This document shows, in pieces, positions 3,070 to 62,153 of a stretch of DNA of 64,000 bases (the first letter of the stretch is position 1; the number at the start of each line of letters is the position of its first letter). The position numbers and the translations under genes are program-made. Origin of the DNA: a virus (taxonomy: Duplodnaviria; Heunggongvirae; Uroviricota; Caudoviricetes); the IMG/VR virus record IMGVR_UViG_3300031417_000415; one strand, written 5' to 3'. The notes below the pieces were generated by a model that had not been told where the DNA came from, ran no database searches, and saw only the letters and a list, made by a program, of their open reading frames with translations.

Positions 3070-3116
3070 AGGCTGCCGACCGGGGTTCACGACGTATTCC
3101 AGAGAAGGAAAAAGAG

Positions 3117-3470
3117 ATGGCGACCGAGCAAGAAGACCGGATGGGGCAGGCCGAATCGGTCGTGCCGCACGGCATGTACTGCTACACGCGCGTGCCCGAT
3201 CCCGCGCGCGACGCGGAGCGTGCCGCGACCGGGAAGCCCTTCATTCCGGGCCGCCACGTCCCCTGCCCCCACCACGAGCTGCGCGCGGACAAGCCCGAGC
3301 AGGAGAACGGCTACTGCAGCCTGCTGAAGGCGGGCGACTGGATGTCGGCCGACCAGGGCGGCACGATGCTGCTGTGGGACGGGTGCAAGGAATGCGGCGT
3401 CAACATGCCGACCGACGCCGAGATCCTGGCGGAACAGGTGGACTGGACGCCCGCGCAGCAGCCCGCCTAG
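3117..3470 (+). CDS. small Cys/His-rich hypothetical protein
   Basis: start preceded by conserved AGAAGGAAAAAGAG motif; CPHH...CSLL...CKEC pattern. Confidence 0.45.
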   Translation: MATEQEDRMGQAESVVPHGMYCYTRVPDPARDAERAATGKPFIPGRHVPCPHHELRADKPEQENGYCSLLKAGDWMSADQGGTMLLWDGCKECGVNMPTDAEILAEQVDWTPAQQPA

Positions 3471-3585
3471 GCACGGCTCTGCGAGCCGGACATGTAAAGA
3501 AAGCGCGATTTTCTGGACATATGGCGCAGACGTGCGAACGAAACCGCCCTTTCATCTACAAATGCGACTACCTGAGGAGACGACG

Positions 3586-3918
3586 ATGGGCGAGAGACAG
3601 CGCAACAGCGTGGGCACCAGCCTGCGCGGCTGCATCCGCGACATCCTCGATGGCGGCTTCCCGATCGACCGCGTCGACCGGATCTACGCCTCGACCGCCT
3701 TCGCGACGCGCGAGGAGCTGATCGGCTATCTCACCGCGGGCAAGACGACCCAGAAGGAACGGATGGCGCAGATCGCCGGCCGGCTGTGGGACAACGGCAA
3801 GATCGTGCAGCCGCGGATGGACGGCGGAGAGATGCCGGAATTCCCCGTGACCGAGCTCTGGGTGAGGCTGCCGCCGAAGACGCCGGCACCGATCCGTCCC
3901 GCGAAGCCGCTGTTCTGA
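3586..3918 (+). CDS. hypothetical protein
   Basis: internal ATG with GAGGAG RBS. Confidence 0.35.
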   Translation: MGERQRNSVGTSLRGCIRDILDGGFPIDRVDRIYASTAFATREELIGYLTAGKTTQKERMAQIAGRLWDNGKIVQPRMDGGEMPEFPVTELWVRLPPKTPAPIRPAKPLF

Positions 3919-4340
3919 TGGCCGGCCCGGAGACCCTGCGGACGCTGCGTCACGACATGCGCTCGGCCCCCTGGATCGATGCGATGGCGACCGACGTCGC
4001 CGGCTGCGACCGGTCGGACTGGGAGCGGGGCACGATCCAGGTGATCGAGCATCCCCGTCAGCAGATGCTGGCGGCGCACGGACGGATACGCGAGCACGTC
4101 GACGCCGACTTCCCGCCGTGGTGCTACCTCATGATCCTGGAGGCGCCGAAGTCCACGCTGGTGCTGCGCGGCCATGCACCGCTGACGCTGGCGCCGGGCA
4201 TGCTGGTCGAGTTCGACGCCCACGTCCGGCACCGGCTGCTGCAGGGGCCGCACCAGGACACGATATGGTGTCCGTTCGACACCCCAGACCGCATGGACCT
4301 CGACGAAGCCTTCACCGCAATGGTCAGGATGTACGGCTGA
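3918..4340 (+). CDS. hypothetical protein (possible cupin-like)
   Basis: ATGA overlap with upstream stop; His-rich motif region. Confidence 0.4.
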   Translation: MAGPETLRTLRHDMRSAPWIDAMATDVAGCDRSDWERGTIQVIEHPRQQMLAAHGRIREHVDADFPPWCYLMILEAPKSTLVLRGHAPLTLAPGMLVEFDAHVRHRLLQGPHQDTIWCPFDTPDRMDLDEAFTAMVRMYG

Positions 4341-4374
4341 ACGGGAACGATCGATCATGGACAGGGGAAAAGAG

Positions 4375-4992
4375 ATGGACGGGAACGACGCGTTCATCTG
4401 GTTCGTGGACTTCGACGGGGTGAACTGCACCACGCGCGCCAACATGGCTCTCGGACAGCACGACGACCCGGTCGCCTTCGGACTGCTGGGCCAGATCCTG
4501 CGCGAGACCGGGGCGCAGATGGTCGTCTCGTCGACCCGTCGCGGTCGCGGCAACATCGGCCGGCCCGACAGCTGCCTCGCAATGATAGACCGCCACGGAC
4601 TGACGGACCTGCTCCATACGGACTGGCGGACAGGCGATCTCGCGTCACGCTCGCGCGAGATAGAGGACTGGCTGGACCGCAACGGCCGGCGTCCGTACGG
4701 CATCATCGACGACGAGCGCTGCGACTTCACGCCCGAACAGATCCAGCGCATGATCCACACCGACACGGAATACGGTCTCGGATCGCGCGACGTGGGACGC
4801 GCACGCCGCCTTGCCGGCGTCGCCACCGGGATCGACGTCCTGCACCAGGCGCAGGACGAGGAACCCTGCCGGTACCCGCGCCTGACGATCGGCAACCAGG
4901 CTCGCGCCGCGCTGGCCGCGCTCGATCAGGGAGACGAGGAGAGCGTGCGCCGCATCCTCGACATCATCTCGACCCATCCCCTCGCACAGTAG
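4375..4992 (+). CDS. HAD-superfamily phosphatase-like protein
   Basis: conserved GGGGAAAAGAG-ATG motif; HAD motifs FVDFDGV (DxDG), VVSST, IIDDE. Confidence 0.4.
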   Translation: MDGNDAFIWFVDFDGVNCTTRANMALGQHDDPVAFGLLGQILRETGAQMVVSSTRRGRGNIGRPDSCLAMIDRHGLTDLLHTDWRTGDLASRSREIEDWLDRNGRRPYGIIDDERCDFTPEQIQRMIHTDTEYGLGSRDVGRARRLAGVATGIDVLHQAQDEEPCRYPRLTIGNQARAALAALDQGDEESVRRILDIISTHPLAQ

Positions 4993-5002
4993 GAGAGCAC
5001 CC

Positions 5003-60046: not shown

Positions 60047-60081
60047 GCATCGACCCGAACGAACCTCAGAAGGGAAAAGAG

Positions 60082-60432
60082 ATGATCGATCTGCTGGACA
60101 CGGTCTGGGGCAGTCCCACCCACATCGTCGAGTGGAGCCGCGTCGACGGGACCAGCGACGTGCAGCGCTTCACGAGCCAGGACGCGATGACGAGCCGATA
60201 CGACGAGCTGGTCTCATCGGAACCCGAAGCGATCTTCGTCGTGTCGGTGGCATTGGACGGCGGCGTCGCTCGACCGGTCTCCCGCTTCCGCCGGGACACT
60301 GATCCATCGATCGCGCTGCTGTCGACGGAGCGGCAGGGCCGCGCGAAGTACCTGTGCGCCGGCGCGCAGTCCCGTCACGAGCGTCGCTATGGGGACGCAG
60401 CAATCATTGCCAATTCGGGAGCATGCCGATGA
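60082..60432 (+). CDS. hypothetical protein
   Basis: conserved GAAGGGAAAAGAG-ATG motif. Confidence 0.4.
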   Translation: MIDLLDTVWGSPTHIVEWSRVDGTSDVQRFTSQDAMTSRYDELVSSEPEAIFVVSVALDGGVARPVSRFRRDTDPSIALLSTERQGRAKYLCAGAQSRHERRYGDAAIIANSGACR

Positions 60433-61475
60433 ACGCAGGCAAAAAGGCCCGGCAGCTGGCGGACCAGCTGTTCAGGCGCATCTGGTCGCAGCGGTTCGAA
60501 GTCGTAAGGAACGACGAGACCTTCGATCTAGGCGGACTCAAGGACGTGGCCATGTGGACGCTGTCGCTTCCGGACGGGCTGAAGATCGCATGCCACCGGG
60601 TATCGAACGTGCCGACCTCATCCGACGGCGTATACATGGTTCTGCCGGATCGTCTGGTGAAGCTCGAATTCGCCGATATCGAAGAGGTATCGCGCTGCTA
60701 CAATGCGCTCGTCGCATCGCAGATACTCAATGCGGCAGGATACCCCGATGCCCGGAACGGACGCACGGTGGCGATCGACTTCCGCAGCGACCATGAAGAC
60801 ATCCTGCCTCGCAACCATGGTCGGAAGCGGACCGAACCCTATCTGTTCGACCATCTGGACCGGATCGCGGCCGATGCGATCAGGGCTCTGTCCACCAAGC
60901 ATGCGCACACCACGAGCTTCACCCTGCCGAACGGCATACAGATCAGCTACGTCACCCGTGAAGGACAGACCGACAATGGCGACGTCTGGGTGTCGCACGT
61001 CGACGTGAAACGGCGGATACGGGTACCTCACAGGGCAAGGGCTGAATATGCAACCTGGCGCATGAACGAGACGGCACATCTGCTGGCCGGCACCATGCCT
61101 CCGCCTCTGCAACCACCCCCGAACATAAACGGGAATGCACGTCTTACGCGTGCCCTTCAGCTGTGCCATCAGGCTCTGGGCATCGATCCGGATCTGACGG
61201 ATGACGCCGGAACTCCGCTGCGACCGCTTCTCGAGGACCACGTCCCCGAACTGATGGAGCGGCATCGCCAGGCGAGCATAACCGCCGACGCCCGCGACAT
61301 GGAGGCCATCGACGCGGAACTGGACGACGGCATCGCGGGAATCTGCGACGCCATCGACCAGGGACTGTCACGTATCGCGGACGAACGGCGCCACGCGCTT
61401 CGCGAGCAGCTGGCGTTTCTCGAGATGCGCCACCCCAAGCCCGACAGGCTGCTGGGCATCGCGTCCAGCGGCTGA
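60429..61475 (+). CDS. hypothetical protein (about 349 aa)
   Basis: ATGA overlap. Confidence 0.4.
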   Translation: MNAGKKARQLADQLFRRIWSQRFEVVRNDETFDLGGLKDVAMWTLSLPDGLKIACHRVSNVPTSSDGVYMVLPDRLVKLEFADIEEVSRCYNALVASQILNAAGYPDARNGRTVAIDFRSDHEDILPRNHGRKRTEPYLFDHLDRIAADAIRALSTKHAHTTSFTLPNGIQISYVTREGQTDNGDVWVSHVDVKRRIRVPHRARAEYATWRMNETAHLLAGTMPPPLQPPPNINGNARLTRALQLCHQALGIDPDLTDDAGTPLRPLLEDHVPELMERHRQASITADARDMEAIDAELDDGIAGICDAIDQGLSRIADERRHALREQLAFLEMRHPKPDRLLGIASSG

Positions 61476-61502
61476 TACACCCACACAGCAAGGAGACACA
61501 CC

Positions 61503-61817
61503 ATGACCCTGCGACTTCCCGCCCGCTTCTGGATCGAGTCCGAGGCCGGCTGGGGCACCCGCCCCGACGGCTACACCGTGCACCGCGACGAGGACGTCGC
61601 ACAGCAGTACGTCGCCGACTACTGGAAGCGCGAGCGCGAGCGCAATCCGGGCGGCGGGGTACCGGCCGAATACAGCCGCCCCGCCGAGGAATCCGTCATG
61701 GTCGAGGTCTCGCAGGACCTCTACGACGAGGTCATGGAGAAGGGCAGCGCCTGGGCGCATGTCACCAGCCATCTCGAGACCCACGCGAAGTCGTGGCGCC
61801 GGCCCGTCGCCGCCTGA
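61503..61817 (+). CDS. hypothetical protein
   Basis: RBS AAGGAGAC. Confidence 0.4.
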   Translation: MTLRLPARFWIESEAGWGTRPDGYTVHRDEDVAQQYVADYWKRERERNPGGGVPAEYSRPAEESVMVEVSQDLYDEVMEKGSAWAHVTSHLETHAKSWRRPVAA

Positions 61818-61878
61818 TGCCGGCCTCCGCCCGGCATGTCCGGGCGGATCGAACCGACATCCGCAGGAGCATACCGCC

Positions 61879-62106
61879 ATGCAGGACATGACACGCATTC
61901 CCGCCGACTGGCCCCTGGAGCTCGTGGTGATCGGCCGCGACGTGAAGCGGGGCAGGAACCTCAGGTTCCACGGCACGCAGCGAGAGCTCGTGCACCACCT
62001 CAAGCAGCTGAACTCCGTCGGCACCGGGGGATACTGGGACGTCGACCGTTCCCAGATCCCGGAAGGCGTCGACCTTCCCAGGAGCCGGCGCCGCAGGACC
62101 GCCTGA
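61879..62106 (+). CDS. small hypothetical protein
   Basis: RBS GCAGGAG. Confidence 0.3.
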   Translation: MQDMTRIPADWPLELVVIGRDVKRGRNLRFHGTQRELVHHLKQLNSVGTGGYWDVDRSQIPEGVDLPRSRRRRTA

Positions 62107-62153
62107 ACCCGACAGCTGAATGCGGCGGCTGATACGACTACGAAGGAAAAGAC

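Follow-up and report, generated by a model that had tools for sequence, protein, structure and literature searches.

A purine-rich Shine–Dalgarno motif with an A-rich spacer as the probable ribosome-binding site of genes in a GC-rich mobile element

In its extended form, AGAAAGGAGG, the canonical Shine–Dalgarno (SD) sequence pairs with the 3' tail of 16S rRNA, which ends in ...CCUCCUUUCU-3'. Class-specific SD flavours were reportedly described for phage T4 by Malys in 2012, with GAGG prevalent in early genes. For E. coli, Flow-seq analysis showed that the best-translated mRNAs carry oligo-A tracks of 3–4 nt at positions -6 to -3 of the SD–AUG spacer, and the recommendation is for spacers rich in A and poor in C (PMC7264876). 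Among dsDNA phages, mRNA structure is reduced around start codons, an effect which becomes stronger as GC content rises (Zhou & Wilke 2011, PMC3072339).

The window analysed here, a stretch of 64,000 nt, is part of an uncharacterised GC-rich mobile element (67% GC), for which the initial annotation had described near-identical purine-rich strings ahead of about 30 gene starts. The repetition of such strings before genes is real: by pattern counting, [AG]AGG[AG]?AAAA was found 25 times on the + strand, never on the - strand and 0.4 times in shuffled sequences. The shorter GGAAAA was counted 34 times on the + strand, four times on the - strand and 4.3 times in shuffles, one + and one - match being explained by a palindrome (14339–14356, Table 1), while GGAAAA-N(1-7)-ATG was present 21 times on the + strand, compared with none on the - strand and 0.4 in shuffles. 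With up to two mismatches allowed, GAAGGGAAAAGA yielded 15 matches (1.39 expected), of which 14 lie on the + strand. The motif is clearly less frequent on the opposite strand and at random positions.

Twenty of the 25 strict copies terminate 1–4 nt 5' of a called start codon, corresponding to 19 JGI gene calls and one call of our own (33745), and the remaining five are without a usable start codon; 20–22 strict sites are located within the window. Across the 81.6 kb with gene calls, GGAAAA is present at -20 to -1 in 24 of 104 + strand genes. The figure of about 30 gene starts was an over-count, about 20–25 being appropriate. Both the sense-strand location and the short, variable spacing to start codons are as expected of an SD sequence. 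All 12 strings quoted in the initial annotation exist, albeit with positions displaced by 0–6 nt (the string listed at 44017, for example, lies at 44021), and 11 of these adjoin JGI starts (3117, 11091, 22423, 25290, 44035, 46579, 48712, 52499, 54515, 60082 and 62154). The twelfth does precede an ATG, at 4375, which is 18 nt downstream of the JGI-called start and in the same frame; no exact protein starting at this position is on record.

Table 1. Motif copies, variants and a rejected candidate, with associated start codons and genes
Position (strand)	Motif and spacing	Start or gene	Remark
3105–3119 (+)	AAGGAAAAA + 3 nt + ATG	3117–3470	
4362–4377 (+)	CAGGGGAAAAGAG + ATG	4375	JGI call is in-frame ATG 4357; motif favours 4375
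8470–8491 (+)	GGAAAAC 5' of canonical AGGAGG SD, then ATG	8489	Variant
11079–11093 (+)	AAGGGAAAA + 3 nt + ATG	11091–11483	
12019–12027 (+)			Orphan copy; no start codon within 12 nt
14339–14356 (.)	TTTTCC-TGAAAA-GGAAAA		Rejected as RBS; palindrome adjoining 5' end of minus-strand TnpB gene (sequence read directly)
15060–15071 (+)	Exact GAAGGGAAAAGA		Orphan; no start codon within 12 nt; next ATG (15091) 19 nt off, in a frame differing from that of called gene 15213–16100
18181–18188 (+)			Orphan copy in intergenic gap 18163–18255; no start codon after it; no SD visible for gene 18256, 3' of it
20629–20643 (+)	GAGGAAAA + 4 nt + ATG	20641	In frame within called gene 20311–20976; possible internal or alternative start
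22410–22425 (+)	GAGGGAAAA + 4 nt + ATG	22423–23046	
23058–23072 (+)	AAGGAAAAA + 3 nt + ATG	23070–24203	
25277–25292 (+)	AAGGGAAAA + 4 nt + ATG	25290–26276	
33735–33747 (+)	GAGGAAAAA + 1 nt + ATG	33745–34503	Own call; longest ORF from 33682
40622–40634 (+)	GGAGGAAAA + 2 nt + ATG	40632–40937	
41257–41269 (+)	GGAGGAAAA + 2 nt + ATG	41267–41674	cREC_REC
42519–42532 (+)	GAGGAAAA + 3 nt + ATG	42530–43510	
44022–44037 (+)	AAGGGAAAA + 4 nt + ATG	44035–44607	
44732–44746 (+)	AAGGAAAA + 4 nt + ATG	44744–45169	Preceded by terminator-like hairpin 44631–44650
45980–45991 (+)	GGAGGAAAA + 1 nt + TTG	45989–46534	
46567–46581 (+)	GAGGGAAAA + 3 nt + ATG	46579–47151	
48700–48714 (+)	AAGGAAAA + 4 nt + ATG	48712–49662	PNKP; start confirmed by N-terminus MRAVIFD, common to 28 homologues
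50225–50243 (+)	GGAAAAGGAGAC + ATG	50241	Variant; GGAAAAGGAG retained in L032 orthologue
52487–52501 (+)	AAGGAAAAA + 3 nt + ATG	52499–53359	Band_7
53438–53451 (+)	AAGGAAAAA + 2 nt + ATG	53449–54486	Cation efflux; N-terminus MSAH.SK common to orthologues
54503–54517 (+)	AAGGGAAAA + 3 nt + ATG	54515–55249	
58854–58868 (+)	GGAGGAAAAA + 3 nt + ATG	58866–59588	
60070–60084 (+)	AAGGGAAAA + 3 nt + ATG	60082–60432	
62143–62156 (+)	AAGGAAAA + 3 nt + ATG	62154–62489	

De novo EM motif discovery on positions -28 to -1 of 111 called starts recovered nAAAGGA[G/A]AAnA in ~86% of genes, the motif ending 1–4 nt before the start codon in most of them. Taken together, all starts form a continuum of SD variants, the leading flavours being GGAAAA (18), GGAGAC (10) and GGAGAG (7), with a modest over-representation of GGAAAA (11.3 expected under column independence, p=0.003). 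Within this continuum, GAAGGGAAAAGA is simply the commonest flavour and no signal of its own. A uniformity well beyond that of a generic SD, as initially described, holds for the hand-picked subset of quoted strings and not across all starts, and is partly a selection effect.

In the start-anchored matrix, G peaks at -10 and A at -7/-6 (0.45–0.47), and ATG represents 92% of start codons. The right half of the motif constitutes an oligo-A spacer at about -7 to -4, with an A-run of 3–5 nt; the A fraction is 0.39 at -8 to -3, 0.27 in codons 2–6 and 0.17 in gene bodies. Gene starts were those called by a metagenome pipeline, the caller being assumed to be of the Prodigal type, which rewards SD-like motifs when choosing starts. 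This would render the SD signal partly circular but leave the A-run and the annotation-free counts unaffected.

The left half of the motif (AGAAGGGA or GAAGGA) is complementary to the 3' end (UCCUUUCU-3') of an assumed canonical 16S tail, GAUCACCUCCUUUCU, from which that of the host may differ. Against this assumed tail, RNAduplex returned -10.0 kcal/mol for AGAAGGGA with UCCUUUCU (8 bp, including one G-U pair) and -6.4 kcal/mol for GAAGGA with UCCUUU(C), and mean SD:anti-SD energies were -9.0 (GGAAAA sites), -8.1 (GGAG type) and -5.7 (all other starts). The predicted energy required to open positions -16 to +3 was 5.8, 7.4 and 9.0 kcal/mol for these three classes, respectively, compared with 11.6 kcal/mol at 150 internal positions chosen at random (p=3e-10).

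Similar to the canonical SD, the motif displays a purine-rich GGA/GGAG core ~6–12 nt before the start, on the sense strand only and complementary to the assumed 16S tail, yet its most common flavour has the terminal UCCUUUCU as main pairing partner rather than the CCUCC core. As in phage T4, a mobile element exhibits a preferred SD variant, though, unlike in T4, no link of flavour to a temporal or functional gene class could be shown here. The position and length of the A-run, the depletion of C and the low predicted structure are reminiscent of spacers in the E. coli reporter library (PMC7264876); that library was synthetic, whereas the present case concerns a habit that is natural and genome-wide, in an element of 67% GC. 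The predicted opening energy at starts, about half of that at internal positions, follows the dsDNA phage trend (PMC3072339), which is statistical, whereas a specific motif is involved here.

The motif is best explained, with a probability of about 0.8, as the ribosome-binding site (RBS) of the element's genes, consisting of an SD sequence followed by an A-rich spacer. As such, it is an ordinary strong RBS that follows a known recipe for efficient translation in an element-specific flavour, unusually frequent here, and the sequence features appear to support the 'enhanced RBS' type of translation-initiation signal suggested initially. The 5' half reads (A)GAAGG(G/A) in some copies and GGAGG/AGAGG in others, and would base-pair with the 16S rRNA 3' terminus (the host tail, ...CCUCCUUUCU-3', being inferred to be canonical), with AAAA(G/C)A(N) at about -8 to -2 acting as the SD-to-start spacer. 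This A-rich spacer would hold the site single-stranded in a 67% GC mRNA, and the open site would promote 30S binding and initiation at the ATG 1–4 nt downstream. We infer from these features that ribosomes use the sites and that the A-run raises translation. Orthologues of PNKP, CDF and three ORFans align from residue 1, in indirect support of initiation at these starts. Motif sites occupy gaps of 13–290 nt within long one-strand gene arrays poor in promoter- and terminator-like sites, and such a location, internal to long polycistronic arrays, suggests that each gene is initiated independently. GGAAAA was found at -20 to -1 in 25 of 78 genes with an upstream gap of at least 13 nt and in none of 30 with a shorter gap or overlap.

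It is rather unlikely that GGAAAA additionally represents a graded expression code, i.e. a deliberately stronger RBS for high-output genes that would constitute a translational 'regulon' within the element. Its over-representation points in that direction, as does its ranking first of the three classes in both predicted ease of opening and predicted SD duplex strength, but the opening-energy gap to the GGAG class is marginal (p=0.044), and motif genes are not clustered along the genome (runs test P=0.26). Furthermore, these genes are mostly ORFans, and those of known function represent an unrelated mix (PNKP, Band_7, CDF and cREC). The A-run, moreover, was not retained at orthologous starts in L032 or L033.

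A rapid turnover of motif copies between relatives, and an AT skew that is positive over almost the entire window, would fit a compositional by-product, whereby the intergenic sense strand is purine- and A-rich through mutational or strand bias and the A-run itself is unselected. Such an origin is nevertheless improbable, since the A fraction peaks sharply at -12 to -3 (0.34–0.39, compared with only 0.19–0.22 at -60 to -21), and C is depleted to 0.10 only at -12 to -9, returning to 0.24 in the A-rich -8 to -3 spacer. Moreover, the A-rich spacer habit is common to related GC-rich metagenomic elements, the spacer A fraction being 0.37 in independent relatives and 0.23 in sampled sphingomonad DNA of similar GC, where such enrichment is absent; A-rich spacers occur less often in a Caulobacter jumbo phage and in the Sphingosinicella genes sampled from chromosome and plasmid.

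Short conserved strings before many one-strand genes are typical of phage promoters, and a 347 kb Sphingosinicella plasmid, apparently a similar element although the relationship is uncertain, carries a sigma-factor-like gene. It is nonetheless very improbable that the motif combines promoter and RBS, or serves as promoter for an RNA polymerase or sigma factor encoded by the element, as information content is ~0 upstream of -14, the core equals the anti-SD complement, and the spacing to the ATG, which varies by 1–4 nt, leaves no room for a leader with its own SD. The same GGA core precedes ~86% of genes, including internal operon genes and those whose start overlaps or directly adjoins the gene before. 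No link of the motif to larger gaps, as for heads of transcription units, was detected. In the 20 kb scanned, three promoter-like and eight terminator-like matches were obtained, about the chance expectation, and no sigma-70-like pattern accompanied the motif. With no shared upstream block seen before motif genes, no gene clustering and an A-run that is not kept at orthologous starts of an 81%-identical relative, neither the combined late-promoter/RBS nor the dedicated regulon initially envisaged is supported.

CsrA-type proteins recognise GGA at RBSs, and CsrA/RsmA-type sites present GGA in hairpin loops, usually at least twice per leader, with a cognate regulator gene. A site for an RNA-binding translational regulator of the GGA/A-rich sequence over the RBS (a CsrA/RsmA-like or T4 RegA-like repressor) is the least credible reading of all, as the near-invariance of GGA in the aligned EM motif (0.92/0.94/0.94) is expected of any SD alignment, the annotation of the 81.6 kb examined lists no such regulator gene, and the region is predicted to have unusually little structure rather than being presented in hairpin loops.

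For the motif as an RBS, no long-standing question is opened, and the practical value lies mainly in annotation. The longest-ORF rule over-extends many genes in this 67% GC sequence; as initially proposed, the SD and A-spacer signal pins true starts inside longer GC-driven ORFs, for example 4375 (versus 4357), 33745 (versus 33682) and 44035 (versus GTG 44001). A more tentative and rather unlikely notion is that a family of very large GC-rich elements possesses its own translation-initiation 'dialect', differing from that of the host lineage. The elements concerned are carried on contigs of 552 kb to 1.06 Mb, with one-strand gene arrays and an affinity to Sphingomonadales, and the proposed dialect would combine near-universal SD use, extreme 16S 3'-terminus pairing, oligo-A spacers and the 92% ATG starts. 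If true, such a dialect could have been selected for an advantage over host mRNAs in the competition for ribosomes, or could match an element-encoded translation factor elsewhere on the contig.

The SD core was observed in 70–73% of element and relative genes, compared with 54% of the sampled genes of the nearest cellular relatives. In the motif we see how a mobile element rich in GC maintains open initiation regions with a strong SD dependence, more so than those sampled cellular genes, and, if this contrast held for the full element versus its true host, it would represent a modest case of element-specific translation tuning.

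The purine-rich string preceding start codons, which in its wild-type form and together with the start reads GAAGGGAAAAGAC-ATG, was confirmed as a real feature by annotation-free counts, the strict pattern [AG]AGG[AG]?AAAA being present 25 times on the + strand and 0 times on the - strand, compared with 0.4 occurrences in shuffled sequences. GGAAAA-N(1-7)-ATG was found 21 times on the + strand and 0 times on the - strand (shuffles 0.4), GGAAAA by itself 34 and 4 times, respectively (shuffles 4.3), and GAAGGGAAAAGA, with up to two mismatches allowed, yielded 15 matches against 1.39 expected, 14 of which were on the + strand. 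Twenty of the 25 strict copies terminate 1-4 nt 5' of a called start codon, and in four cases the next 12 nt contain no start codon. All 12 examples listed in the initial annotation were shown to be real, with coordinates 0-6 nt off, and its use of the motif as a marker of true gene starts is supported. Its figure of about 30 starts was an over-count, as 24 of the 104 +-strand genes in the 81.6 kb analysed (111 genes called by the metagenome pipeline, window coordinates -9112 to 72489) have GGAAAA in the 20 nt before the start. This GGAAAA flavour is restricted to upstream gaps with sequence that is free to evolve, being present at 25 of the 78 genes whose upstream gap is 13 nt or longer and at none of the 30 with shorter gaps or overlaps.

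In a start-anchored matrix, purine enrichment was confined to positions -12 to -6, with a G peak at -10 (0.66) and an A peak at -7/-6 (0.45-0.47). Unsupervised expectation maximization (EM) on the -28..-1 regions of the 111 starts recovered nAAAGGA[G/A]AAnA in ~86% of genes, mostly ending 1-4 nt 5' of the start codon. This motif is a Shine-Dalgarno (SD) site, of which the string originally described represents one flavour. At the 75 sites that scored well, the hexamer cores were GGAAAA (18), GGAGAC (10), GGAGAG (7), GGAGGA (6), GGAGAA (5) and GGAGCA (5); the excess of GGAAAA is modest, with 18 observed versus 11.3 under column independence (permutation p=0.003). Pairing was computed against the widespread 16S tail GAUCACCUCCUUUCU, which is assumed and may not be that of the host. 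RNAduplex paired AGAAGGGA with the terminal UCCUUUCU of this tail at -10.0 kcal/mol, and GAAGGA with UCCUUU(C) at -6.4 kcal/mol, the A-run remaining as a spacer. The proposed enhanced ribosome-binding site (RBS) is thereby supported, in the form of an SD core with an A-rich spacer.

Three other readings were considered. A second register, with the UUU of the 16S tail paired to the A-run, was rejected, as the duplex predicted by RNAduplex lies on the GAAGG(G/A) half and the alternative would leave no spacer. A combined late-promoter/RBS signal, as also suggested in the initial annotation, was rejected: information content is ~0 upstream of -14, neither the matrix nor the upstream sequences display a shared block, and promoter-like and terminator-like matches in the 20 kb richest in copies are at chance level. 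The associated regulon was not supported either, since the genes carrying the motif show no clustering (runs test P=0.26).

Upstream regions were also compared with those of two GC-rich metagenomic relatives, the syntenic L032 and L033, whose PNKP proteins are 81% and 67% identical to that of the window, respectively. Orthologous genes start at the identical residue and their upstream sequences retain only a purine-rich SD and lack the A-run, as illustrated by PNKP (window, ctgAAGGAAAAGcaaATG; L032, cgAAAGGGAGAatacgcaATG; L033, ctAAAAGGGAGAcacgccATG). Individual motif copies therefore turn over, a pattern that fits stabilising selection on the strength of a generic RBS and not a specific regulatory operator.

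Predicted SD:anti-SD energies, calculated with the assumed 16S tail, and opening energies (-16..+3) were -9.0 and 5.8 kcal/mol for GGAAAA sites, -8.1 and 7.4 kcal/mol for GGAG-type sites, and -5.7 and 9.0 kcal/mol for other starts; 150 random internal positions, included as a control to which pairing is not applicable, gave an opening energy of 11.6 kcal/mol. The opening energy of GGAAAA sites differed from that of the internal control (p=3e-10) and of GGAG-type sites (p=0.044). The A content, 0.17 within gene bodies and 0.19-0.22 over -60..-21, rose to 0.39 over -8..-3 and to 0.27 for codons 2-6. Strong SD pairing combined with an open, A-rich start region is the probable working mode of the motif. 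In an Escherichia coli Flow-seq library, the best-translated mRNAs carry oligo-A tracks in the SD-AUG spacer (positions -6..-3), where C is disfavoured (PMC7264876); the A-rich -8..-3 region of the element agrees with this. Similarly, the low predicted opening energy agrees with the loosening of mRNA structure near start codons in dsDNA phages, which rises with GC content (PMC3072339). The 111 called starts (window -9112..72489) comprise 102 ATG (92%), 6 GTG and 3 TTG codons; such ATG usage is high given a GC content of 67%, and a Sphingosinicella plasmid sample contained ~24% GTG/TTG.

The window corresponds to the reverse complement of ~349,198-413,197 of JGI metagenome contig Ga0308169_10000012 (552,210 bp; JGI 3300031420), and identical proteins are encoded on Logan contigs and on one contig of 1,059,898 bp. 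GC content is 65-68% across the entire window. The + strand carries 104 of the 111 called genes, the majority of which have no Pfam match. The small ORFan genes form long one-strand arrays, and comparable high-GC arrays occur on contigs of unrelated samples (L032, L033 and L116). Recognisable genes include those for Band_7, a cation-efflux (CDF) protein, ClpP, ADP-ribosylglycohydrolase and ART-PolyVal, as well as those tabulated below. The YadA-like anchor protein argues for a diderm host. It is unusual to find the thrombospondin type 1 domain outside eukaryotes; an 857-aa minus-strand protein of L116 gave a faint match to it. The RNA ligase and PNKP genes are also neighbours on a Sphingosinicella chromosome.

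Coordinates of selected genes and motif sites in and near the window
Feature	Position	Strand	Remark
877-aa AAA_33/Metallophos/T4-type RNA ligase fusion	L011 4091-6724		~2.4 kb upstream of window
886-aa protein, C-terminal YadA-like membrane-anchor domain	5685-8345	+	resembles trimeric autotransporter adhesin
IS605-type TnpB gene	13061-14320	-	among few minus-strand genes
Palindrome TTTTCCTGAAAAGGAAAA	14339-14356		just past 5' end of TnpB gene
Exact GAAGGGAAAAGA without following start codon	15060-15071		~0.7 kb from TnpB gene
Orphan GAGAAGGAAAACC	within 18163-18256		~65 nt upstream of 524-aa gene at 18256
Strong motif with ATG 20641	20629-20643		in frame within called gene 20311-20976; one of 25 strict copies
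~1272-1283-aa protein, eight thrombospondin type 1 (TSP1_ADAMTS) repeats	36652-40470	-	E=2e-55
RNA ligase and PNKP pair	47438-49662	+	600 nt between them

Searches of the window for tRNAs and Rfam families returned none, PHROGs scans of 30 proteins revealed no phage structural or replication hallmark, a megablast query with a 2.9 kb gene matched nothing in phage records, and scans of viral contigs with single proteins (PNKP and a 377-aa ORFan) identified no relatives. The contig is absent from IMG/VR, where an exact 51-mer had no match. The closest named homologues were consistently from Sphingomonadales (PNKP 60-63% and CDF 63-64% identity), and the element is for this reason treated here as a putative mobile element (a phage or a plasmid) of very large size and with Sphingomonadales affinity. 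In a PNKP-alignment scan, Sphingosinicella terrae was the sole close locus among the genome-contig matches listed, and the corresponding scan of metagenome contigs recovered distant relatives only (at most 41% identity), too remote to be of use. TnpB was uninformative as a host marker, its best plasmid matches being 46-51% identical and spread over unrelated phyla. Together with L032, L033 and L116, the window may belong to a family of giant elements resembling phages or plasmids. L033 encodes an Acb1-family (anti-CBASS) protein (11398-11883) and a full-length SecA (18113-20815) with only 64-65% identity to every Sphingomonas SecA, which may be a divergent element-borne copy. A 692 kb metagenomic contig (L117; JGI 3300034072) with a GC content of just 45% carries a PNKP 61% identical to that of the window and a one-strand ORFan array of the same style, with DUF4262 and TnpB genes, and may be a low-GC counterpart.

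Several individual sites merit separate mention. The motif at ATG 20641 may mark an internal start or the real start of a shorter protein. The copy at 15060-15071 may reflect a start that has decayed or was mis-called, the next ATG (15091) opening a 177-aa ORF that overlaps called gene 15213-16100 in a different frame. No recognisable SD was found upstream of the 524-aa gene at 18256, and the palindrome accounts for one orphan motif match per strand. Furthermore, AAGGTGGG..GGAAAATGAAG is common to two intergenic regions (10406-10432 and 29730-29751), at 10424 forming a three-codon mini-ORF (ATG AAG TGA) 21 nt 5' of the real start at 10453.

RBS usage in the element, its relatives and reference replicons (GGAAAA, genes carrying this hexamer at -20..-1; A fraction, measured over -8..-3; SD core, proportion of genes that have one)
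Source	GGAAAA	A fraction	SD core
Window element	24/104	0.39	70%
Relative L116 (GC 67%)	6/29	0.37 (pooled)	73% (pooled)
Relative L032	1/17	0.37 (pooled)	73% (pooled)
Relative L033	2/29	0.37 (pooled)	73% (pooled)
Sphingosinicella chromosome (L031) and 347 kb plasmid (L035)	0/55	0.23	54%
Caulobacter jumbo phage CcrSC (L034)	0/39	0.23	36%

The A fraction and SD core of L116, L032 and L033 are values pooled over these three relatives. The frequency of GGAAAA in the window element differed from that in CcrSC (p=3e-4, Fisher), in L032 and L033 combined (3/46; p=0.02, Fisher) and in the Sphingosinicella sample (p=3e-5, Fisher), from which the spacer A fraction also differed (p=5e-5, Mann-Whitney), this sample consisting of 54-55 ordinary genes of the inferred host, highly expressed genes not among them. 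The signal is of a mechanistically known kind, an SD with an A-rich spacer, carried by a new, uncharacterised element. The RBS habit of the element family is stronger and more A-rich than that of this small sample of the nearest cellular lineage. An element-specific translation dialect is the one mildly novel possibility, of low probability.
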